Shown: positions 27,043-37,092 of the stretch, piece by piece
Position numbering within the stretch: position 1 is the first letter of the stretch
Layout: each line of letters begins with the position of its first letter
Origin: a virus
Taxonomy: Duplodnaviria > Heunggongvirae > Uroviricota > Caudoviricetes
DNA length: 38,518 bases
Virus record (IMG/VR): IMGVR_UViG_2671181134_000015
Reading direction: 5' to 3' (one strand)
Made by a program: the position numbers and the translations under genes
Notes under the pieces: generated by a model
Told to the model about the DNA's origin: nothing
What the model saw: only the letters and a program-made list of their open reading frames with translations
Databases searched by the model: none

Positions 27043-27076
27043 AGAGCGAGGTTATTGGTGCCTCGCTCTTTAAATT
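27043..27076 (+). terminator. Hairpin (AGAGCGAGG-N9-CCTCGCTCT) between convergent genes
   Basis: 9-bp perfect stem followed by TTTAAATT; 16 nt after the stop of the 26524-27027 gene. Confidence 0.4.
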
Positions 27077-27392
27077 ATCGAGCCGTTCTTGCGCTCATGA
27101 TGCTTTGCGCCAGCAACTGCCAGCCCTCTTTCTGTTGCCCGCGCTTGTCCTGATACCTGTTTACCTGCAAGTTTCCGTGCACCAGAATCAGATCGCCTTT
27201 TCTGTGTTTTGCCAGTTCTTCGTGCTGCTTCCCGAATGCAATAAGGTAAAGCCACATTGTGGTTGGCTGTTCTGCGCCATGGCAGGGTAGTGATACCGCC
27301 AGTTGTGCCGTTGTGACGTTGGTTCCTTTGGTTGTTCTCCTTGTGTTCGGGTCTGCTGCCAGTCGTCCCTCTGTTGCAACCTGTGTTGGCAT
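27075..27392 (-). CDS. Short SSB-like OB-fold protein (putative single-stranded DNA-binding protein)
   Basis: EGRLAADPNTRRTTKGTNVTTAQLAV and later blocks follow the SSB OB-fold pattern; lacks the acidic C-terminal tail. Confidence 0.45.
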   Translation of the reverse strand: MPTQVATEGRLAADPNTRRTTKGTNVTTAQLAVSLPCHGAEQPTTMWLYLIAFGKQHEELAKHRKGDLILVHGNLQVNRYQDKRGQQKEGWQLLAQSIMSARTAR

Positions 27393-27424: not shown

Positions 27425-27763
27425 TTAGATGGCTGGCAGATCTCCGCCAGCGCCGTAGATAAACAGAATTCGCTTCATGATTTCGCTGCGCTTACAGGCT
27501 TCGATGACTGATTTTTCCTGTTGCCATTCAGTCCTTTGCGCCAGTTCCTGTCGTTCCTTTTCCGTTGGCTTGCGATAATGCGTTATCTTGTCCGTGTACC
27601 CGTCCACAACCAGCAGCCCTTCGCGTACCATCTTCCCGGCGGCCTGATTAATGATGGTCCTTTTCACGCCCAGTTTTTCAACCAGCTCTGGTGCGCTGAA
27701 GCGTGCGTGCGTTTCCAGGTAGCGTAAAATGATTACCTTTCCGGTCATTCTGGGTGTCTTCAT
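27425..27763 (-). CDS. Putative winged-helix DNA-binding protein
   Basis: Helix-turn-helix-like segment SAPELVEKLGVKRTIINQAAGKMVREGLL. Confidence 0.4.
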   Translation of the reverse strand: MKTPRMTGKVIILRYLETHARFSAPELVEKLGVKRTIINQAAGKMVREGLLVVDGYTDKITHYRKPTEKERQELAQRTEWQQEKSVIEACKRSEIMKRILFIYGAGGDLPAI

Positions 27764-27969
27764 TTGGCGGCTCCTTCGTTGTTCCGGCGTTCGCGGAGTT
27801 CGGTCAGTGCTGCCAGTAAATTTTCCCACCATGTTTCTTCCACAACCGGATTTCGTCGTGAAAGCAGCTGCTGCGCCGACTCAATCATTTTCGTAAGCTC
27901 TTTGTCGCTGATCCTCCTGATGTCGTTCATGGTGTGCTCCTTCGGTTTGCTGTTTCTGGTCATGTTCAT
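27760..27969 (-). CDS. Hypothetical small protein (69 aa)
   Basis: ORF in the early operon, start-stop overlaps with neighbours. Confidence 0.35.
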   Translation of the reverse strand: MNMTRNSKPKEHTMNDIRRISDKELTKMIESAQQLLSRRNPVVEETWWENLLAALTELRERRNNEGAAK

Positions 27970-27978
27970 GGTCTTTTG

Positions 27979-28383
27979 TTACCTGCGTGATTGCCTGCTG
28001 GCGGCCGAATGCACATAGCGGACAATTGCCGCTTTTCGGTTAACGACGGCCAGCGTTCTTGCCAGTTCTTCGTTGAGTTTTCTGGTCTGTTTTTCGTGGT
28101 ATGCCTGCATGATTTTTCCTACGGGAGTCAGTGGTTCAGGCTCTGATATGGCGCGACGAGGGCGCACGGCAACGATGAATGCGCTTCTGTCGGTGTTGAT
28201 TCTTGCAGTCAGGATGTCGGTCATAACGGTGTCTGTGCTGCGATCGGGACTGGCGATCGTGATTTCCAGTTCGTCGCCTGGCTGCGGTCGAACACTGACG
28301 CCGCTCAGTGTCAGTGCCGGAATGCGTGCGTTCATGATGGTGCTGAAATCATGGCGCTGGAGTACGCAATGGAATCGTGTCAT
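27979..28383 (-). CDS. Hypothetical protein downstream of the replication gene
   Basis: 134-aa ORF overlapping the A stop. Confidence 0.45.
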   Translation of the reverse strand: MTRFHCVLQRHDFSTIMNARIPALTLSGVSVRPQPGDELEITIASPDRSTDTVMTDILTARINTDRSAFIVAVRPRRAISEPEPLTPVGKIMQAYHEKQTRKLNEELARTLAVVNRKAAIVRYVHSAASRQSRR

Positions 28384-30893
28384 GGGTTAACCTCCGGTTG
28401 ATCTGCTGCCACCAGGCTTCGTGATTTTTCATCCCAGTGCACAATCCGCCCGTCAGGCAGGCGAACGCGTGCACCTCTGTGTACGGAAAGTGCTGCGCCA
28501 CTGTGTAGCTCCTCGCCCGTCGTGCTCAGTGCCGACTTGATTACGGTGGTGGTGACGTCAGTCAGCGGCAATGCTGTACGCACATGTATGACGTCATCGG
28601 GCGTGGTGGGGCCGCCGGTTTTCACGGTTTTTGTGTCAGATGGCGCATCTTTCAGCTGCCTGGTGAGTTGTTTTCTCTCTGTGGGGGTCAGTGACCTTAA
28701 CCATTCGCTCAAATCACCTTCCGGGATGGTCAGTTTTTGTTCTTTCCTGGTTTCCGGTGGTGGGGTTTTACCCTCTCCGGTGTCTGTTTTTTCATCATGG
28801 GGACAGTTATTGCCACGAGTCCAAGGTGCGGCAAAGCCGCACTCAACGTCAAAACCCTCGTCCGTGCTGTTGTCGGCTTTCGCTTCTTTTCTGACCAGTT
28901 TCCACTCGTCCGGATGGGTACAGATGGTGTAGCGCTCGCCGAGCGACGGGGCGCAAATTCCGTAGATGCGCTGCGGGAATTCGCCGTAGTCGTTGGCCTC
29001 ATCTGCGGTTTCGTATGCGGTGCGGACCAGGTACGCGTTGCGGGGAATGAGCACGCCACCCTGGCGGGTGATGTAGGTGGCAAAACACCCCACGTCAGCA
29101 GCGGCCAGAATGGCGTCAATGTCGTCATGATCCAGGCGCTTCGGTGATGCCGGGTTGCGCTCCATCTGTCCGGCAAGGCGGCGGAGTTCACGCCACACCT
29201 GGCGGGGCGGGATGCCGAAGAACTGGAACTGACGGATGCGATGGAGACTCGCCCAGGCAATGGCGTTTTCCACGGTTTCGGCCATGGTTTTCCCTGATTC
29301 CTCATCGGCGTAAGGTTTGCCGGTTTTCGGGTCATTGTCGTGAAAGGCGCTGGCGTCCAGGTTCTTGCCGATATAGGTTGCGATGTAACTTGCCGGTGTG
29401 CCTTTTGCCGGGTCGATTTTTTCGCACTTGAAGCGCGGCGAAATATCATCCCCCAGTTCTGCGCGATCTGATTTGACTGCCGCGTCACGCATGATTGCAA
29501 TGATGCGTTCTTCATTGTCCGGGGAGGTGAATACCAGCATGTGCCAGTGCGGTGTGCCGTCATGGTGTGGCTCAACGGTGCGCACCCCGTACCAGCTCAG
29601 GCCTTCTTTGTTGAGTTTTTTTCTTACAGCTGCAAAGACGTCGTACACCAGATAATCGCTGGCATCGCGCACGGTGGCACCGTTGTATTTCGGGTTCAGG
29701 CTGCCGTCCTCGTTTACGCTGTGAAAGCGGGAAGGGCAGGTCACTGTCACGAAGAACGCGGAGTCACCACGCGATTCGGCGACCTGTTCCATCCCTCTGA
29801 CGCAGGCCATCATCTCGTTGCGGCGGTTGCGCGGATTCCCCAGCCCTGACCAGTACACGTCCTCCAGACTCAGGCGTTCACCGTCTTCGTTTTCAATGTC
29901 CCAGCTTTTGAGAAAATCACGGGTGCGTTGGCGTTTCTCCCGGAATTCCTGGAGTGACTCATGGCTGATGTAGGGGGATGCCCTGCGCGATACTCTTCCG
30001 GCGGCACGCAGTAATTCCTCCCGCCAGAGATCGGCGAGGTGGCGCAGCTGGTTGTTCCACCAGGTGGCGCAGGTGATGCGCATTACTGCACCCGGTACCC
30101 GTTCAGGGTCTGGTGCCGTGCGGCGGTCACGTCTGAGCTCGAGTGACGGCCAGCATGGTGGGGTCACGCCCAGTTTTAACGCCATGCGCGCCAGCTGCTG
30201 GTAAGTCAGCAACCAGGTAAACAGGTTATCGTCGCCTTTTCCTGTCCGCTCAGTAACTTCATCACATATGCGTTCCAGTTCGGTGGAAAATGCCGCCGCT
30301 GTTAGTGTGGCAAGGCGCTGAATTTGATCACGGTTGAGTTGTGGCAGCATGAGTAATTCATCAAGGCGATGGCGTGCTGCGGTGGCTTTGAATGCCGTCG
30401 TGGCGAAGCATTCATTCACCTGTTCGATGCGTTTCAGGCGTGTGCGCAGTCCACGGCGAACAAAGTTATCAGCCACGTGTGTATTGTTGTTTTTCACGCC
30501 TTCATGGCGGGCGCTTTGCTGTTTGCGGTTTAAACGCGCCAGATCACGAATGAGCGCGTTGCCAAGAAACGAGGGCAGGGCGCGAAGTTCTGCCATGGCT
30601 TCCGATACCACTGTGGGCGGATTTTCGCGTTTGTGTCTCGCCAGTTTTTCCAGTCTGATCCGGCGCTCTTCGTCGTGGTGAAGATGCGAATTAATTCGCT
30701 TGCCTTCGTCTGTGTTTGTCAGGAAGTCGACGGTCTCTTCATCCAGTCTTGCATCAATGCGAATGTCTTCGTTGATGTAGCTCTGAATGGCCTGGCGTAA
30801 TGCGGTTGGTTGCGCTCTGCCGAACGTTTCAGGATCGATAACCGGTAGCGGGGCGTTCCACGGGTACGCCAGTTGTGCGTTATGGTCGCTCAT
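28380..30893 (-). CDS. Replication initiation endonuclease gpA-like (rolling-circle HUH family)
   Basis: 837 aa; GTPHWHMLVF HUH-type motif; ATGA overlap with the upstream gene. Confidence 0.85.
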   Translation of the reverse strand: MSDHNAQLAYPWNAPLPVIDPETFGRAQPTALRQAIQSYINEDIRIDARLDEETVDFLTNTDEGKRINSHLHHDEERRIRLEKLARHKRENPPTVVSEAMAELRALPSFLGNALIRDLARLNRKQQSARHEGVKNNNTHVADNFVRRGLRTRLKRIEQVNECFATTAFKATAARHRLDELLMLPQLNRDQIQRLATLTAAAFSTELERICDEVTERTGKGDDNLFTWLLTYQQLARMALKLGVTPPCWPSLELRRDRRTAPDPERVPGAVMRITCATWWNNQLRHLADLWREELLRAAGRVSRRASPYISHESLQEFREKRQRTRDFLKSWDIENEDGERLSLEDVYWSGLGNPRNRRNEMMACVRGMEQVAESRGDSAFFVTVTCPSRFHSVNEDGSLNPKYNGATVRDASDYLVYDVFAAVRKKLNKEGLSWYGVRTVEPHHDGTPHWHMLVFTSPDNEERIIAIMRDAAVKSDRAELGDDISPRFKCEKIDPAKGTPASYIATYIGKNLDASAFHDNDPKTGKPYADEESGKTMAETVENAIAWASLHRIRQFQFFGIPPRQVWRELRRLAGQMERNPASPKRLDHDDIDAILAAADVGCFATYITRQGGVLIPRNAYLVRTAYETADEANDYGEFPQRIYGICAPSLGERYTICTHPDEWKLVRKEAKADNSTDEGFDVECGFAAPWTRGNNCPHDEKTDTGEGKTPPPETRKEQKLTIPEGDLSEWLRSLTPTERKQLTRQLKDAPSDTKTVKTGGPTTPDDVIHVRTALPLTDVTTTVIKSALSTTGEELHSGAALSVHRGARVRLPDGRIVHWDEKSRSLVAADQPEVNP

Positions 30894-31306
30894 GCGTCGC
30901 ACTCCCCGGCAGTCGCCGCCTGAAACGCCGCGCGGTACAGCATGAGAAGGCGCTGGTATTCGCCGATAAAACCTTCTGCGGTGTATATACCTTTCACGGC
31001 CACGCTGTGGTTTGTCATTTCCAGAACCAGCGCCATCTCTGATGACGACCAGCTGATGGTGGTGCTGTCGGTGCCGTTGATGTGAAATAAACCCAGTCCA
31101 TCACCATCACCTTTCACGTCCACGCGGTAACGACCGTCAACGGTGAAGGAGAAATCCCCGGATGTGGTGATGCTGCGGGCAGCCTGTTTACAGGCGCGGC
31201 GGTAATAGTCGTGCCAGTCGTTCAGGCGGGAAGCCAGCCGGGGATCCACTGCCCACATCCAGTTAAAAAAATCCTGAATATCTGAAAGTCCCTTAACGCT
31301 CTTCAT
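30890..31306 (-). CDS. Hypothetical protein immediately upstream of gpA
   Basis: 138-aa ORF translationally coupled to A. Confidence 0.45.
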   Translation of the reverse strand: MKSVKGLSDIQDFFNWMWAVDPRLASRLNDWHDYYRRACKQAARSITTSGDFSFTVDGRYRVDVKGDGDGLGLFHINGTDSTTISWSSSEMALVLEMTNHSVAVKGIYTAEGFIGEYQRLLMLYRAAFQAATAGECDA

Positions 31307-31374
31307 GAGAACCTCCGGTAACAGATGTGCGGAAGCCTCCCGCGTACGGGTGCGGGATGGCTTCAGGATGTTGT

Positions 31375-31602
31375 TTAGTGGTGGTGTTGCTGGTTGATAA
31401 GGTCCTGCAGCTCCGCGAGATCATCCGCCAGGTAGCTGAAAACAGCGGCACAGTAACGGTTTGACAGAGCGTGAGTGCGCTCATGCAGCATGTTGATATG
31501 CATGATTTGCGCGACGCGTGTTGCGCGGAAAAGTCTGCGGTTGATTTCAGTCTGGATGTGACGACGCTCAGCGCGGGCGCGCTGTTGCTTGCGGTTTGCC
31601 AT
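31375..31602 (-). CDS. Hypothetical small basic protein (75 aa)
   Basis: MANRKQQRARAERRH... arginine-rich N-terminus. Confidence 0.4.
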   Translation of the reverse strand: MANRKQQRARAERRHIQTEINRRLFRATRVAQIMHINMLHERTHALSNRYCAAVFSYLADDLAELQDLINQQHHH

Positions 31603-31985
31603 GGTGTGGCCTCTTCGTTTGTGAATTTTGAAAACTCACCAACCAGAGGTTCCAAGCTCAGGGTGGCGAGACGTACAGGGTTGGAACTACCGGCAAACGA
31701 AGAAACCGGCCCGACCGAAGTCGGCCCTGTACGCCCCGCCATAATTCTGATGCGAAAAAGACGTGGCGATACAGTACGCACAAAAAAACCGCTGGCGCGG
31801 CTGTGCGCTTCGTTTGTCAGCGGGGTTCCAATCCCGGCACCCGTTTTATGAGGTGCAGCGGAAATGTAACCCGACACGACGAGCGCTGGCAAGCGGTTTT
31901 TGTGTTGCGTGCTGATGTGGTTAGAATGTGGCGAATTAATATCACCTGGCAACTGGTGATTGTCTGCATACGCGGGGTGTTTCTG

Positions 31986-32450
31986 ATGAGTGATAAGCTC
32001 CCTTCTGATTACGACATTCTTTTTGACCTGTGGTACAGCTACTGGCTTGAACGTATTACATGTGTGTTTCACCGACGCGTTTCTGCTGCTCTGCGAATCA
32101 GCGCCTTTCTGGTTGGTGTTGCGGCGTTTGTCCTGTGTGATTTTGTTGTGTTGGTACTCTTCAGTGTGGTTCTGTTTCTGCTCTGGCAGTGCATGGCTGC
32201 CAGTTTTGAACGCAGGGCTGAAAAGGCTGAATGGCAGACAGTCAGTTACCAGCGCCTTATCAGTCAGCGCCATGTGATTAGTAAGGAATGCATGATTGCG
32301 CGCCTCTCCTTTGTTGAGGAAAGTGACAGTCCCATCATGGAGTGCATGATTAATCTTGCCTGGAATAAAGCCTGTGAGGCGGTTGGCAGCTCTTCGCGCA
32401 ATCATGTTTCGTTCTCCGGTCGGTTACTCAGTCGCCTGTGCGGCTTCTGA
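31986..32450 (+). CDS. Putative membrane protein (about 154 aa) on the strand opposite the early operon; start uncertain
   Basis: Hydrophobic stretch ALRISAFLVGVAAFVLCDFVVLVLFSVVLFLLW; the antisense 370-aa ORF is low-complexity; overlaps the DUF4406-like gene 3' end by 27 nt. Confidence 0.3.
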   Translation: MSDKLPSDYDILFDLWYSYWLERITCVFHRRVSAALRISAFLVGVAAFVLCDFVVLVLFSVVLFLLWQCMAASFERRAEKAEWQTVSYQRLISQRHVISKECMIARLSFVEESDSPIMECMINLAWNKACEAVGSSSRNHVSFSGRLLSRLCGF

Positions 32451-32774
32451 CTGGCGAAGCAGCTGGGTGATGCTTTCACCGGCTGCCCTGTTTTCCGGGA
32501 ATGACACCGGCATGTTCAGCTTGCGTGCCATTGCGTACTCTGCCCGTGCGCCAGCTGACTCCGTCCAGCCTTCCAGTAAGTAAATGGCATCGGCACACAT
32601 GAGCATCGAAATACAAATGCTCATGTACTGCTGCTGGCTTAGTCCGTCCGGCAGTATGGCAGGGTTGAGTGCGGTGTATCCGGCTGACTTAAGCTTCATC
32701 GCCGCCATGGAAAACGCCGTTCTGTTGTGGTCTTTGTATCCGGTCATGGGACCGGCGATATAAATCACTGCCAT
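32424..32774 (-). CDS. DUF4406-like protein (nucleoside 2-deoxyribosyltransferase-like fold)
   Basis: N-terminal IYIAGPMTG signature. Confidence 0.55.
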   Translation of the reverse strand: MAVIYIAGPMTGYKDHNRTAFSMAAMKLKSAGYTALNPAILPDGLSQQQYMSICISMLMCADAIYLLEGWTESAGARAEYAMARKLNMPVSFPENRAAGESITQLLRQSEAAQATE

Positions 32775-32983
32775 GCTGTACCTCCCGTGTTGCGTGTTGC
32801 TGTCAGCACGCGTACTTCTTCCATGTTCGTGGCGCAGAAGTGCGAGCCGTTGATAAGGCGGATGTGATGCATCTCAGGATTGCGTGAGTCCTGGCGTGTC
32901 ATACCCGGGTCAATCAGGCTTTCGTCGACTTCGTACTGACGGCCGTTGGCTGTGAACCGGATAACGGTTGATTCCTGGATCAT
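32765..32983 (-). CDS. Hypothetical small protein (72 aa)
   Basis: ORF with start-stop overlap to neighbours. Confidence 0.4.
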   Translation of the reverse strand: MIQESTVIRFTANGRQYEVDESLIDPGMTRQDSRNPEMHHIRLINGSHFCATNMEEVRVLTATRNTGGTAWQ

Positions 32984-33252
32984 TGTTCGCCCCTTCCTCT
33001 CCGTTCCTTGTTTGCTGCGGTTTTAAGTGCCTCAATTTCCCGTTGCTGCTCCTCAATGATTTCAGCGGACCTGCTGGCAAGCATTGCCGTATAGCTGTGT
33101 CCAAGTGCCACAAATATCCCCGAATCCCGCTTCTCCACCGCCTCTCTTGCTTCCTGTTGTTTGATGCAGGCCAGATATCTCAGTGCTGAAACGACGATTG
33201 ATTGCTGCGTGCTTTTGTTATTCACCGGTTGACTCCTGTGTTGCTGATTCAT
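32980..33252 (-). CDS. Hypothetical small protein (about 90 aa)
   Basis: Start placed at MNQQ just downstream of the dam stop. Confidence 0.35.
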   Translation of the reverse strand: MNQQHRSQPVNNKSTQQSIVVSALRYLACIKQQEAREAVEKRDSGIFVALGHSYTAMLASRSAEIIEEQQREIEALKTAANKERRGRGEQ

Positions 33253-33260
33253 CTGGTTAT

Positions 33261-34235
33261 TCACGGGTGAGCAGAGGTAAACATCGCGCTGTACGTTGCA
33301 TCTCCCGTCGCCGGGCCGCAGTCCGGGCACCAGCCACCGCCATGGCGACCGCAGGTGTCGCACTGCTTCAGGGTGGCGATAACTTCCATTGCGGGTTCAC
33401 TGGTTCTTGCGCCAACGCTTCGTGGTGCCTGTATGCAGTTCATCCGGTAACCCTGATAAATGCGTCTGGTTTCCGGTGTGTCGGAATTGGAGATGGTGAT
33501 GCTGGTCATGCCGCCCGTTTCCTGTGAAAGGCGGTCAAGCGCTGCTCTCAGGCGAATGTGGTCGTCCTTCGTGAAGGGTTTTCCATAGGCGGTGAAATTG
33601 TCCCGGCCACTGAATGGCAGGTAAGGGGGATCGCAGTACACGCAAAGCGTGTTACCCATGCTGAACAGGTGGCTGGCACAGCTCAGCGTTTTTCGAAAAT
33701 CGCCATGAACAAGCAGTGTTCGGGTGCTGTTTGCCTTGTCTGCAAATGCGCGGATCTCCCGCTCAGGAAAATAATGTTTGCTGTAGCTGCCGAAAGGAAC
33801 GTTAAAATCGCCTTTTCCATTCACGCGGAACAGGCCGTTAAAACAGTGTCGGTTGAGGTACAAAAACATGGCGGCCAGTCGCAGTTTCCGACGGTCGCTT
33901 ATTCCCGTGCTCAGGAATGCATGATTCTCTGCATTAAAGGTGTTGCGGATGGCGAGATAGTCAGCCCTGTTGTTATGTTCCAGGAACAGGTCTTTTGCCT
34001 CATCGATCAGGCTGTCGGTGTTGTCCCGTGCTGCCCGCCAGAAATTAATCAGCGCACCGTTGGAATCTCCAAGGATGCAGCGGCTGTAACGGGTGTTCAT
34101 GAATACCGATGCGCCACCCACGAACGGCTCAACCAGGCAGTCAGCTTCTGGCAGGTGCGCCTTCAGTGTGTCCATGATGCGGTTTTTTCCGCCCACCCAT
34201 TTCAGCGGTGTGCCGGATAACAGTTTTTCGCTCAT
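33261..34235 (-). CDS. dam: DNA adenine methyltransferase (Dam / D12-class N6-adenine MTase) with Cys-rich C-terminal extension
   Basis: PFVGGASVF SAM-binding-like block and DPPY catalytic motif; C-terminal CDTCGRHGGGWCPDCGP cluster. Confidence 0.8.
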   Translation of the reverse strand: MSEKLLSGTPLKWVGGKNRIMDTLKAHLPEADCLVEPFVGGASVFMNTRYSRCILGDSNGALINFWRAARDNTDSLIDEAKDLFLEHNNRADYLAIRNTFNAENHAFLSTGISDRRKLRLAAMFLYLNRHCFNGLFRVNGKGDFNVPFGSYSKHYFPEREIRAFADKANSTRTLLVHGDFRKTLSCASHLFSMGNTLCVYCDPPYLPFSGRDNFTAYGKPFTKDDHIRLRAALDRLSQETGGMTSITISNSDTPETRRIYQGYRMNCIQAPRSVGARTSEPAMEVIATLKQCDTCGRHGGGWCPDCGPATGDATYSAMFTSAHP

Positions 34236-34469
34236 AACGCGGCCTCTCTGTTATAGGTTTCGTGCGTTAATAAATCCCATGACTTCCCGTTGTTTTTGCT
34301 CAGTAATCGCCAGCGAAAACCGATTCTTATGACCAGGTAGTCGTGGGGCTTTATGCGTGAAAAATTCCGCGCTCCGTTGCGAAATAAGCGCAGAGACGTG
34401 CGGGCTTTTGTTTCCACGTTCAGGGGGGGGGCGGCAACACACATTCAGGATGGCGACCATGGCTTCACC

Positions 34470-35060
34470 TCATATGTTCAGGAATGGTGTTGTGAAGCGC
34501 TGCCAGATTTCTGACACGACCTTTGCCTGGTAAACGGCATCGCCCAGTGCAGTGTGAGCAATAGCCTCCTTTCCTGATCTGCCTGGCATTTTCCATCCCG
34601 TTGACTCAGCCATGGCGATAAGCGGGCGCATACAGCGCTCGTTCCAGTAGCACCACGGAATGCTTTTTTCTCCGGCTGTGCGTGTTATGGCGGATTTCAG
34701 GATCGGGAAATCGAAGGATGCGCCCTTGCACCATATGGTCAGTGAATTGCCCGGGCTTTCGTCATGCATGTTGCGTGAAATGAACGCCAGAAATTCGGTT
34801 ACTGCCGCAAGCTCTGTTCCCTCTGCGTTGCGCAGGCAGGATCTGGCCTCCACGGATTGTCCGGCCCACCATACAGTGGTTGCTGCATTGACGGTTCCGC
34901 CGTTGCGTTCTGAATCCACCGGGTCGATGAATTGCTCAAACTGCTTGCCCAGCTTTCCGGTGAACGGGTCGAAAAACACCGCGCCAATTGCGAATATGAC
35001 GGCATCCGGTCCGGAGCCCAGTGTTTCAGTGTCAATCATGAGATGGTTCATTATGCGCAC
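34470..35060 (-). CDS. DnaQ-like 3'-5' exonuclease (DEDD family)
   Basis: MIDTETLG Exo I motif near the N-terminus, later H...D block. Confidence 0.7.
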   Translation of the reverse strand: MRIMNHLMIDTETLGSGPDAVIFAIGAVFFDPFTGKLGKQFEQFIDPVDSERNGGTVNAATTVWWAGQSVEARSCLRNAEGTELAAVTEFLAFISRNMHDESPGNSLTIWCKGASFDFPILKSAITRTAGEKSIPWCYWNERCMRPLIAMAESTGWKMPGRSGKEAIAHTALGDAVYQAKVVSEIWQRFTTPFLNI

Positions 35061-35281
35061 CCCTTCAGTTCGTCTGGGTTGGCGAGTATTGCAATCAGTC
35101 GTTCAATGGCTGCGCAGGTTTCCTGTGGACAGGTGTGTGTCTCTTTCGCTGTCTCAGTCAGCTCGCGCAGTAATTCGCAGATATGTGCACGCTCGGCTTT
35201 TCTTGCGGCCATGCTGATATGCGCATGATGGTTAGCTGGTCTGGCGGTTATTTCTCTGCCGGGTGATTCGGCTGTTCTCAT
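35051..35281 (-). CDS. Hypothetical small protein (76 aa)
   Basis: Start at MRTAE with GGAG RBS; the ORF track extends further upstream through a hairpin. Confidence 0.35.
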   Translation of the reverse strand: MRTAESPGREITARPANHHAHISMAARKAERAHICELLRELTETAKETHTCPQETCAAIERLIAILANPDELKGCA

Positions 35282-35387
35282 TTGTTGACTCCTGAAAAAA
35301 AGACAAAGGGAACCCGAAGGCATGAATGCCTTAATTAATTGCTCGTGTGTTTTCTGGTGTTATTCCGCGCCTGCTTTCGGCTTCAGG

Positions 35388-35483
35388 TTATTCCCAGATC
35401 TTCAGGGCTAACCAGATAAGCGCACTCACCTGAAATATCACCCATACAGTGGCGATGGTGTGTATTGCTTTTACATTCTTCAT
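35388..35483 (-). CDS. Small hydrophobic peptide (31 aa), unannotatable from sequence
   Basis: MKNVKAIHTIATVWVIFQVSALIWLALKIWE; no clear RBS; 12 nt after the preceding small ORF. Confidence 0.25.
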   Translation of the reverse strand: MKNVKAIHTIATVWVIFQVSALIWLALKIWE

Positions 35484-35495
35484 AAGGTTTTCGCT

Positions 35496-35621
35496 TTATT
35501 TACGGCGTTTATCGCCGGTAAAGAATAATTCGATATCCTTCAGTGTGTAGATAATTCGCATAATGCCGATTGCCATAAGCACGGAGATAATCAGAATTAC
35601 CCATGAAAGAAATATGCTCAT
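35496..35621 (-). CDS. Small hydrophobic peptide (41 aa)
   Basis: MSIFLSWVILIISVLMAIGIMRIIYTLKDIELFFTGDKRRK; ATGA overlap with the upstream gene. Confidence 0.3.
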   Translation of the reverse strand: MSIFLSWVILIISVLMAIGIMRIIYTLKDIELFFTGDKRRK

Positions 35622-35860
35622 GCGGCTACCCCTGTGAAGTAAGGCTCAACAATTTCACCTTCAAACAGTTCTGTCATAATCGACTTTAATTCTTCCAGCG
35701 CTTCACGGTCATCGCTGCCCAGTGCGCAGTTGTATAGCCCCATAATTGCGCCGCGCAGTGAGTTACGAAGGCTTTCATCCTTAGTTACGCCCCGGTTTGC
35801 GAGTTCAAAGTGATAACGTTGCAACGCGTTATTGATAAGTATTTTGTAGGCTTCGATCAT
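35618..35860 (-). CDS. Hypothetical early protein (80 aa)
   Basis: ORF in the early operon. Confidence 0.45.
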   Translation of the reverse strand: MIEAYKILINNALQRYHFELANRGVTKDESLRNSLRGAIMGLYNCALGSDDREALEELKSIMTELFEGEIVEPYFTGVAA

Positions 35861-35878
35861 GGCTGAATCCTTTATTTA

Positions 35879-36214
35879 TCAGTGCTTGCTTCCCGGATAT
35901 TGAAAACGCAGGCCGCTGATTAATCTGTCTGCCGTTCTTAAGGCTTCAAAAAATGTGAAGTCCTGTCCGAAGTAATCATCCCCGCGAGTCAGGGTGAAAT
36001 TAAATCTGCCAGTAACAGGGCTGCGAAAACTTTTGTGAATAACGATGCCAGTGTCGCCAATCGTCCAGGTGTGCTTGCCGGTTTGTTTTACCGGGTGACC
36101 GTCTGGTGTGGTATGGATTTCAGTGGTTGCGGTCGCACTATTTTTACGGAAGTGCTGGCGTGCAACGTGGCGTTCGGTGTTGTTATTGATGCGTGCATTT
36201 CGTTGTTGCTTCAT
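35879..36214 (-). CDS. Hypothetical early protein (111 aa)
   Basis: ORF in the early operon. Confidence 0.45.
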   Translation of the reverse strand: MKQQRNARINNNTERHVARQHFRKNSATATTEIHTTPDGHPVKQTGKHTWTIGDTGIVIHKSFRSPVTGRFNFTLTRGDDYFGQDFTFFEALRTADRLISGLRFQYPGSKH

Positions 36215-36239
36215 TCTTCACTCGGTCCTTATGCGATGA

Positions 36240-36434
36240 TTACAGTGATTCGTCTCTTGTCAGCCTAAAAATCACTTCAGCCATGACTTCGCTAATTACA
36301 TCGATCCCCTGATCGGTAAGGGCTTCTTTCCAGGCCTTGCTTGCACGTGTTGGATCCATCCTGCCTGATTGCTGTTGTATGATGATGAAGCGTAAATCGC
36401 TGTATAAGTCTTTTGTTTGAGTGGAGTCAGTCAT
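36240..36434 (-). CDS. Hypothetical early protein (64 aa)
   Basis: ORF in the early operon. Confidence 0.4.
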   Translation of the reverse strand: MTDSTQTKDLYSDLRFIIIQQQSGRMDPTRASKAWKEALTDQGIDVISEVMAEVIFRLTRDESL

Positions 36435-36485
36435 GTCAACACCTTCAAATCCCGATGCTCTTAATGATCCCGGTTTGTTTTGATG

Positions 36486-37010
36486 TCACTGGTTGCCTTC
36501 GCTGTATTGGTGTTGCTCCAGTTTTGACTTTCTTCCTGTGTAAACCCGCTTTCCATTGATGGTCTGGCAGTCTTCTTTGTTTGCCGGGGAAAACTTTCTT
36601 TTCTGTCGGTCGTACGTCCAGTAGCTTTTCCAGTTGTGCCATTCTGGCGGCTCGCATTCTGGTAGTTCGTCAGCCAGCTTGTCCCACTCTCTGGCGTTAA
36701 ACCACCATACGCCATCCGAATTTTCATCTTCAGGGTTTGAACGGGTCTTGTGTCCAGGCATCTGATTTCGCTGAAGCGCCACGCGCAATGCAGCTTTTGT
36801 CAACCCGATATAGGCTGCCCCTTTTTCAAGTGAGCAAAGTCCGGCTACCGGGCCATCCAGTCGCAAGGTTGCCCCTTTTTTGTAGGTGCGTTTTTTCTTT
36901 TCCTCTTGGTGTTCATCGTCGTTTTCCGCACCAACGGATTCGGTGATGCTGTCGTTTTCCTGAAGGGCTTGTGTGTCAGATAACTCTTTATCGGCAATTG
37001 ACTTCCGCAT
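36486..37010 (-). CDS. Cox/Apl-like excisionase-regulator candidate (first gene of the early operon; N-terminal extent uncertain)
   Basis: Divergent from the repressor gene; HTH-like YIGLTKAALRVALQRNQMPGHKT and W-rich block DGVWWFNAREWDKL resemble P2 Cox; the acidic N-terminal 50 aa may not be translated. Confidence 0.45.
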   Translation of the reverse strand: MRKSIADKELSDTQALQENDSITESVGAENDDEHQEEKKKRTYKKGATLRLDGPVAGLCSLEKGAAYIGLTKAALRVALQRNQMPGHKTRSNPEDENSDGVWWFNAREWDKLADELPECEPPEWHNWKSYWTYDRQKRKFSPANKEDCQTINGKRVYTGRKSKLEQHQYSEGNQ

Positions 37011-37072
37011 TTGCTATCCTCTTGCGTTGGTGCGCTTGTCGCGCATCATGAAGGTTTGTTTAGGTTTATAAA

Positions 37073-37092
37073 AGATACTCGTGCGAGTATCT
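37073..37092. promoter_or_regulatory. Perfect 9-bp inverted repeat AGATACTCG-TG-CGAGTATCT in the cox/C divergent region; candidate operator
   Basis: Lies between the divergent starts at 37010 and 37115; a second palindrome TGCGC-N5-GCGCA is at 37031-37045 and TATAAA at 37067-37072. Confidence 0.4.

Follow-up and report, generated by a model that had tools for sequence, protein, structure and literature searches.

Accessory exonuclease, ParE-like, Dam and DUF4406 genes of the P2-like early operon in an Escherichia coli prophage

The early region of bacteriophage P2 is annotated as cox, orf78, B, orf80-83 and A, and contains no exonuclease, Dam methyltransferase, ParE-like or DUF4406 gene. Structures of the T4 exonuclease DexA (PDB 8KEN/8KEL) were reported by Kang et al. 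(Nucleic Acids Res 2025, PMC12153337), who also described EcD, an 'uncharacterized E. coli exonuclease' in which the D90 tetramer contact of DexA is replaced by Ala (A78) and the Trp involved in recognition of 5-hydroxymethylcytosine (5hmC) is retained. EcD digests 5hmC-modified T4 DNA and not unmodified double-stranded DNA (dsDNA), and its expression from a plasmid protects Escherichia coli against T4 (PMC12153337). Phage Dam enzymes, meanwhile, are commonly viewed as anti-restriction functions (10.1101/2020.06.22.160242). The subject of the present analysis is a block of minus-strand genes in a P2-like (Peduoviridae) prophage of E. coli, studied in a window of 38,518 nucleotides (nt) that is the whole stretch of IMG/VR virus record IMGVR_UViG_2671181134_000015 and contains the usual P2 structural genes. 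The block comprises an exonuclease gene, a frameshifted ParE-like gene, a Dam-family methyltransferase gene, two small open reading frames (ORFs) and a DUF4406 gene. It had initially been annotated, from the sequence alone, as a DNA-modification or anti-restriction module with no counterpart in P2 itself, and the latter statement holds for the P2 early region as annotated.

The block is read here, with confidence slightly better than even, as an ordinary two-layer accessory stretch of a P2-like early operon, themed on DNA modification and on discrimination between self and non-self. Judged from gene order across relatives, the first layer appears to be a cassette of exonuclease (Exo), ParE-like gene and Dam with a zinc ribbon, conserved in enterobacterial P2-like phages and mostly located right before the replication gene gpA. 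The second layer appears to be an add-on of the E. coli lineage, consisting of the two small ORFs and the DUF4406 gene. The genes are accessory, because P2 does without them and the slot upstream of gpA varies among relatives, and a place in the core replication machinery was rejected on the same grounds. The gene set is common and already annotated, hence it is not a novel finding: the Prokaryotic Genome Annotation Pipeline (PGAP) already names all four assignable genes in E. coli, many prophages of Klebsiella, Salmonella and Pantoea have relatives of the block, and the exact exonuclease/ParE-like/Dam junction is found in 27 of 5,426 complete E. coli genomes.

The early operon and its conserved cassette

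The arrangement around the block is that of a P2 early operon. A helix-turn-helix repressor gene (37115-37456, plus strand) and the integrase gene diverge from a minus-strand early operon, the first gene of which is Cox-like (36486-37010; weak match to PF10743 Phage_Cox, and to the transcriptional regulator phrog_23196 with E 2e-119) and the last of which is gpA (28380-30902; 'replication endonuclease' according to PGAP in a 97%-identical relative). The nearest complete genome, NZ_AP045173, is 97% identical over window positions 30800-37500, and cycA, fklB and ytfB flank the P2-like prophage. Between the Cox-like gene and gpA, as the upstream and downstream boundaries, the exonuclease, ParE-like, Dam and DUF4406 genes and the two small ORFs are tightly packed on the minus strand, which agrees with the location between lysogeny switch and replication gene given by the initial annotation. 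Because the junctions range from -10 to +9 nt and a Shine-Dalgarno sequence precedes every start, the genes from orf90 (35051-35323) down to DUF4406 fit a single translationally coupled operon. The window phage thus resembles P2 in the divergence of repressor and integrase from a Cox-like gene and in an operon that ends with gpA, but differs from it in carrying the exonuclease, Dam, ParE-like and DUF4406 genes, in having other small ORFs (DUF4761, DUF4754) and in a unit of isrK RNA, C4 RNA and derepression protein that is inserted before gpA.

The three-gene order recurs well beyond the window. Across 80 ParE-like loci in viral contigs, an exonuclease homolog lies directly upstream in 79 and a D12-class Dam directly downstream in 73, a C5 methyltransferase is also present in 12 and gpA comes next in most, although the loci are phylogenetically redundant, such that these counts are descriptive and overstate independence. 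The order Exo–ParE-like–Dam is also found in a Klebsiella Reipivirus phage, a Pantoea prophage and metagenomic contigs, and Exo–ParE-like is the most constant pair of the cassette. Variants occur as well. In Salmonella phage SI7 and in two further loci (L009 and L010) the order is Dam, ParE-like, C5 methyltransferase, so that the ParE-like gene follows Dam and not an exonuclease; in another locus (L114) the ParE-like gene runs directly into gpA. In L136 the Dam position is held by a protein of 338 amino acids (aa; L136:3245-4261) with an SGGKDS PP-loop motif, PAPS-reductase-like by eye, which suggests alternative DNA-modification chemistries in one slot. Since Dam, Dam plus C5 methyltransferase or a PP-loop/PAPS-reductase-like gene can be found there, the position before gpA appears to be a slot for DNA-modification genes.

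The exonuclease homologs of these loci fall into intact and degenerate types. All five DEDDh residues are kept in approximately 10 of the 77 homologs obtained from the 80 loci, and the window protein is of the intact E. coli type. Most Klebsiella- and Pantoea-type homologs have lost two to three of the five (L005:3405-3971, L008:4387-5004 and most of L112-L181), for example with D-x-I in place of D-x-E or with the His replaced by Arg, Cys or Thr. On these substitutions, the degenerate homolog that sits beside the ParE-like gene in the Klebsiella and Pantoea types is likely a pseudo-enzyme.

The encoded proteins

Domain searches bear out the three families named in the initial annotation, a DEDD-type 3'-5' exonuclease, a D12 adenine methyltransferase and a DUF4406-like protein, all of them far above the curated cut-offs. 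The exonuclease gene (34470-35060, minus strand) encodes a DEDDh 3'-5' exonuclease homologous to T4 DexA and matches PF16473 (Rv2179c-like 3'-5' exonuclease) with 169.4 bits and E 8e-50. Its start needs correction: ATG 35051 (193 aa) is likely the true start, rather than GTG 35060 (196-aa ORF), because PGAP in the close relative L001 and the cluster members use ATG. Residues are numbered here on the 196-aa ORF, in which the 189-aa forms of the family (e.g. P0321) begin at codon M8. The catalytic residues D10, E12, D117, H169 and D174 are intact and align with D7, E9, D119, H186 and D191 of DexA, and the closest solved structure is PDB 8KEN/8KEL, a 227-aa 'Exodeoxyribonuclease' that is T4 DexA.

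Several lines of evidence connect the gene with EcD (HREX). The forward cloning primer of EcD, taken like the reverse primer from the supplement of PMC12153337, matches 16 of 17 bases at 35023-35039, from codon M8 (MIDTET), and the reverse primer aligns to 34470-34488, stop codon included, with 19 of its 20 bases matching and one gap. Furthermore, Ala85, which is A78 in the 189-aa forms, aligns with DexA D90, Trp139 aligns with DexA W152, and the E. coli homologs of the exonuclease are 85-97% identical. From the primer matches, the correspondence of A78 with DexA D90 and the identity of the E. coli homologs, the window exonuclease appears to be an ortholog of EcD; PF16473 and the DEDDh residues are common to it, EcD and DexA, and the Ala at the D90 position and the Trp at the W152 position are shared with EcD. 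The column of DexA D169 lies in a gapped region of the MAFFT alignment, where Ser153 is aligned and Glu152 is one column off, and a search of the PDB with the C-terminal fragment, made to locate D169, gave no match. EcD was published as a bacterial gene, the word 'prophage' occurring 0 times in PMC12153337, whereas the window gene is an early-operon gene of a P2-like prophage with the ParE-like gene and Dam as its neighbours; the placement of EcD in a P2-like early operon is a contextual addition of the present analysis. By analogy with EcD, the window allele is predicted to be selective for 5hmC-DNA and protective against T4. Since EcD degrades 5hmC T4 DNA and protects from T4, the exonuclease would serve attack or defence at least as much as it would serve anti-restriction.

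The gene downstream of the ParE-like gene (33261-34235, minus strand) encodes an orphan Dam-family (D12 class) N6-adenine DNA methyltransferase, predicted to be GATC-specific. It matches PF02086 (E 4e-52; 177.8 bits, cut-off 22) and TIGR00571 (229.8 bits, cut-off 114.85), and has the S-adenosylmethionine (AdoMet)-binding motif FVGGA at residues 38-42, a variant also seen in other phage Dams, and the catalytic DPPY at 202-205. Compared with E. coli Dam structures it scores 180 bits. In the alignment to 2G1P, E. coli Dam K9, N120, L122, R124 and P134 correspond to K12, N133, L135, R137 and P147, and N126, N132 and Y138 are likewise kept as N139, N145 and Y151; Y119 and R137 are replaced by Phe and Ser. 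Positions such as K9, N120, L122, R124 and P134 are presumably the DNA-contact and GATC-specificity residues of the E. coli Dam-DNA structure and, because they are mostly kept, GATC is the expected specificity. The DPPY, the FxGG-type AdoMet motif, most of these contact residues and a TIGR00571 score above the cut-off are shared with E. coli Dam and phage orphan Dams. The window protein differs from host Dam in two respects: it reaches 217 bits against an equivalog cut-off of 441 for NF008152 and hence is not the host Dam ortholog, and its C-terminus is extended by a tail of about 45 aa, absent from host Dam, in which a CxxC-x7-CxxC zinc ribbon lies. Its top PADLOC model is an orphan methyltransferase. 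No endonuclease family was found among its neighbours in Pfam, PHROG, NCBIfam and PADLOC scans for a cognate restriction endonuclease, and a restriction-modification system was rejected for want of such a partner.

The C-terminal Cys cluster pointed out in the initial annotation is a zinc-ribbon module (33291-33362, minus strand) with the spacing C292-x2-C295-x7-C303-x2-C306, followed by GDATY at 311-315. The ribbon (CxxCG.xGGGxCPDCG...GDATY) shares 49% identity over 43 aa with residues 527-568 of a lambdoid protein of 813 aa (L007:7120-9561), in which it stands between a RecE N-terminal/ExoVIII-N domain (PF06630) and a PF16473 DEDDh domain, the latter a nuclease domain of the same family as the exonuclease neighbouring Dam. 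Klebsiella and Salmonella P2-like Dams also bear the ribbon. Among 50,697 phage records searched with tblastn, it was confined to two places in 42 records, the C-termini of P2-like Dams and the interior of 'exodeoxyribonuclease VIII'/recE proteins, and a search with the tail against 1.84 billion representatives was dominated by giant Cys-repeat proteins and gave two true relatives only (P0047 and P0158). From this distribution the ribbon appears to be a discrete mobile module, and it might conceivably have a shared targeting or interaction role in Dam and RecE-type proteins.

The third member of the cassette (34232-34460, minus strand) encodes a putative ParE/RelE-fold protein and matches the 'ParE-like toxin domain' PF24732 (E 5e-18; 65.2 bits, cut-off 24.4). 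An in-frame ATG at 34444 leaves a 70-aa ORF (34232-34444), one of the 'small unknowns' of the initial annotation, a description that holds for 32765-32983 and 32980-33225 but not here. Homologs are 75 aa long with an invariant core KP.YLVIR...WRLLSK...THETYN, and the gene ends on a stop codon that shares ATGA with the Dam start (-4 nt). A C9 homopolymer at 34423-34431 (minus strand) covers codons 10-13; C8 gives the intact 75-aa protein and is the sole in-frame length among C7, C8 and C9. Pattern scans for the tract gave one locus each in viral and metagenome contigs, and lengths were then read from five E. coli genomes. The tract is C7 in L001 and L098, which belong to one sequencing series, C8 in L095, L096 and L099, and interrupted in L100, and the gene is frameshifted in two genomes besides the window. 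Such differences in length reflect either errors in sequencing the homopolymer or slipped-strand (phase) variation.

The ParE-like label comes solely from the Pfam model, since the AlphaFold2 (AF2) model (predicted local distance difference test, pLDDT, 59), a Foldseek comparison with the PDB (best E ~2-4, with RelE/ParE only among noise) and a profile search of PDB sequences (no solved toxin matched) gave nothing significant. The protein is like RelE/ParE type II toxins in its PF24732 match, in a predicted secondary structure of helix, four strands and helix, and in that some of its phage relatives are annotated as HigB-like or mRNA interferase. It differs from them in having one N-terminal helix, compared with two in canonical ParE/RelE, and in the setting of its gene between exonuclease and methyltransferase genes without an antitoxin-like partner; no antitoxin domain was found in these flanking genes in Pfam and NCBIfam scans.

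The last gene of the block (32424-32774, minus strand) encodes a DUF4406 protein (PF14359, E 7e-34; 116.5 bits, cut-off 22) with the IYIAGPMTG motif of the initial annotation at residues 4-12 and a nucleoside 2-deoxyribosyltransferase/MilB-like fold; its AF2 model (pLDDT 93) has the flavodoxin-like fold of the deoxyribosyltransferase type. The systems used for comparison were the MilB CMP/hmCMP hydrolase, deoxyribosyltransferases (NDT) and Rcl/DNPH1. Within the family the putative catalytic Glu79 is invariant in S73-x-G75-A76-x2-E79 and Tyr5 is nearly so. By motif spacing, and not by superposition, these two presumably sit where the catalytic Glu and Tyr (E98 and Y7) of the Lactobacillus leichmannii deoxyribosyltransferase lie. 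DUF4406 is present in 557 phage records, including N15 gp57, phiKO2, PY54, D6 and many actinophages, and a literature search found no functional report for it. In 21 of 78 viral-contig loci a methyltransferase is encoded within 4 kb of DUF4406 and in the other 57 none is nearby; in 17 of the 21 it lies within 215 nt on the same strand (16 upstream, 1 downstream). These methyltransferases include D12, T1-type N6 and C5 fusions and MT-A70-type enzymes, and the pairing is also seen in N15 gp57-gp58 (C5 methyltransferase) and Shewanella phage 1/41. This recurrent adjacency supports a functional tie of DUF4406 to DNA methylation. A 117-aa E. coli protein (P0292) consists of a D12 methyltransferase fragment and DUF4406 (PF02086 and PF14359) and is probably the product of a deletion that fused both genes in a related prophage.

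Two small ORFs separate Dam from DUF4406. The first, of 81 aa (32980-33225, minus strand; alternative start 33252), has a weak match to phrog_9338, is hypothetical according to PGAP in L001 and, within the E. coli subset of cassette loci, is found together with orf72 and DUF4406. The second is the 72-aa orf72 (32765-32983, minus strand; phrog_3459, E 8e-34), which overlaps its neighbours by 4 and 10 nt.

Proposed working and competing explanations

As an accessory stretch concerned with DNA modification, the block could work as follows. The genes would be co-transcribed from Pe with translational coupling, as the junctions suggest. Dam, on the evidence of its intact motifs and contact residues, would methylate GATC on replicating phage DNA; once fully methylated, this fast-replicating DNA would be shielded against MutH and GATC-directed restriction. 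The exonuclease would act as a modification-sensitive 3'-5' DNase that attacks differently modified competitor DNA, rather than in restriction evasion, because its near-identical homolog EcD digests 5hmC T4 DNA and spares unmodified dsDNA. Its fold and conserved Glu make the DUF4406 protein, which is recurrently coupled to methyltransferases, a probable N-glycosidase with a (deoxy)nucleotide as substrate.

A number of observations weigh against this reading, the redundancy of the 80 loci among them. In a lysogen the early operon should be silenced by the C repressor, and because of this a role of the exonuclease in protecting lysogens needs leaky or internal expression; a scan for internal promoters that could express the block in lysogens found 6 sites compared with 5.8 expected from shuffled sequence. 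E. coli hosts are already Dam+, so a GATC-specific Dam looks partly redundant, and the reading frame of the ParE-like gene is not intact in the window, where C9 shifts it relative to the 75-aa family. The parts are also separable: Salmonella phage SI7 has no exonuclease, Dam is absent from 7 of the 80 related loci, and DUF4406 occurs in just 10 of them, usually with orf72 and sometimes with the 81-aa ORF. Since catalytic residues are lost in most Klebsiella-type homologs, the conserved role of the exonuclease homolog may not be nucleolytic. Finally, the EcD accession HAK9828821.1 was absent among the cluster members listed, such that the link to EcD is made by primers and residue numbering.

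This separability is what an unlinked mosaic would produce, in which the genes merely share a permissive early-operon slot and have no joint function. The parts do occur apart, with exonuclease in 1,463 phage records next to the 557 with DUF4406, with DUF4406 in few cassette loci and with most DUF4406 loci devoid of a nearby methyltransferase. Yet an order Exo–ParE-like–Dam that hardly varies between genera, and in which stop and start codons overlap, is hard to obtain by chance, and so is the close adjacency in 17 of 21 cases where DUF4406 has a methyltransferase nearby; a mosaic is accordingly considered possible, at about one chance in a few.

A pure anti-restriction module, in which all genes protect phage DNA, Dam masks GATC and the exonuclease and DUF4406 protein aid modification or destroy host restriction intermediates, is somewhat less probable than a mosaic and is regarded as unlikely. 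The Dam is intact, of orphan type and predicted to be GATC-specific, enzymes of this kind are commonly viewed as anti-restriction functions (10.1101/2020.06.22.160242), and the slot often holds additional methyltransferases. GATC is mildly under-represented in the window (observed/expected 0.85), and so is not strongly avoided. However, GATC is already methylated by E. coli, EcD, the ortholog of the exonuclease, is reported to target modified foreign DNA and not to protect self, and no Ard, Ocr or similar family matched any ORF in Pfam, PHROG and NCBIfam scans; PADLOC holds models of defence systems, not of anti-restriction proteins, and has no bearing here. A literature search on anti-defence roles of deoxyribosyltransferase-like proteins and on P2-like early-operon cargo found nothing specific. 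Of the initial proposal, the DNA-modification part is partly supported by the contents of the slot and the adjacency of DUF4406 to methyltransferases, but the anti-restriction part is conjectural and, for the exonuclease, is contradicted by the reported activity of EcD.

It is improbable that the genes are replication or repair accessories of gpA rolling-circle replication, with Dam blocking MutH cutting of hemimethylated DNA and the exonuclease trimming 3' ends. In most relatives the cassette is immediately upstream of gpA in the same operon, T4 DexA is annotated for replication and host DNA degradation, and a gene for a single-stranded DNA-binding protein (SSB; 27075-27392) lies downstream of gpA. 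P2 nevertheless replicates without any of these genes, some relatives have no Dam or no exonuclease, and the catalytic residues are lost in most Klebsiella-type exonuclease homologs.

An equally slim prospect is that the three genes (Exo-like, ParE-like and DNA-modification enzyme) make up a conflict cassette, hitherto undescribed, in P2-like phages. In this case an effector with the RelE/ParE fold would be partnered or neutralised by the DEDDh-fold protein, which in most lineages is catalytically dead; Dam and RecE-like nucleases would be directed to one target by the RecE-type zinc ribbon; and the poly-C tract would phase-vary the ParE-like gene together with the coupled Dam. EcD/HREX would be one active-nuclease offshoot of this cassette, and DUF4406 would be a methyltransferase-associated nucleotide glycosidase that, for example, clears methylated nucleotides or S-adenosylhomocysteine.

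Least probable of all is a toxin-antitoxin-like or abortive-infection pair of exonuclease-like and ParE-like proteins, with the DEDDh-fold protein neutralising and the downstream modification gene a passenger: the constancy of the upstream exonuclease gene (79 of 80 loci) while the downstream gene varies, its retention although degenerate in most lineages, the invariant core ending in THETYN of the 75-aa family and the short or overlapping gene spacing would suit it, but the ParE-like gene follows Dam in L009, L010 and SI7, the AF2 model (pLDDT 59) has no significant RelE/ParE structural match, no known antitoxin domain was found with Pfam and NCBIfam, and the frameshift in the window and two other genomes is without obvious consequence.

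Neighbouring elements and implications

Other elements surround this two-layer accessory stretch. The interval from DUF4406 to orf138/gpA contains a P1 immI-like unit (31375-31856, minus strand), made up of an isrK RNA (31782-31856; 69 bits, with a terminator-like hairpin inside), a C4 antisense RNA (31659-31746; 86 bits) and a 75-aa 'derepression protein' (31375-31602; PF25738), all on the minus strand and accompanied by a promoter-like site at 31892-31863. Its DNA is 84-86% identical to that of P88-like (Xuanwuvirus) phages, and the unit is probably an RNA-controlled antirepressor. A 174-aa ORF on the plus strand (31926-32450; phrog_6315), with hydrophobic stretches and without Pfam, NCBIfam or PADLOC matches, is convergent to the early operon, and its 3' end shares 27 bp with that of the DUF4406 gene; this ORF may be a moron that breaks into the operon and has a promoter of its own. 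On the downstream side, gpA is followed by a phrog_14984 ORF (27979-28383), a MarR-like ORF (27425-27832) and the SSB gene, and beyond these a region of low GC content (0.43 at 26-27 kb), in which ORFs lie on both strands, occupies the position of the P2 old/tin hotspot. In NZ_AP045173 two Hok/Gef family genes (L002:29008-29620) are located just past ogr at the prophage end.

The identification of the 'bacterial' anti-T4 nuclease EcD/HREX as a prophage gene, placed beside Dam in a repressed early operon, changes how its natural role would be tested, and raises the question of whether it is expressed in lysogens or only during the lytic cycle of P2-like phages. The strongly conserved order of exonuclease, ParE-like gene and methyltransferase, together with the loss of catalytic residues from the exonuclease homolog in many lineages, hints at a non-nucleolytic partnership. 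Furthermore, the adjacency of DUF4406 genes and methyltransferases provides a concrete biochemical lead for the DUF4406 family.

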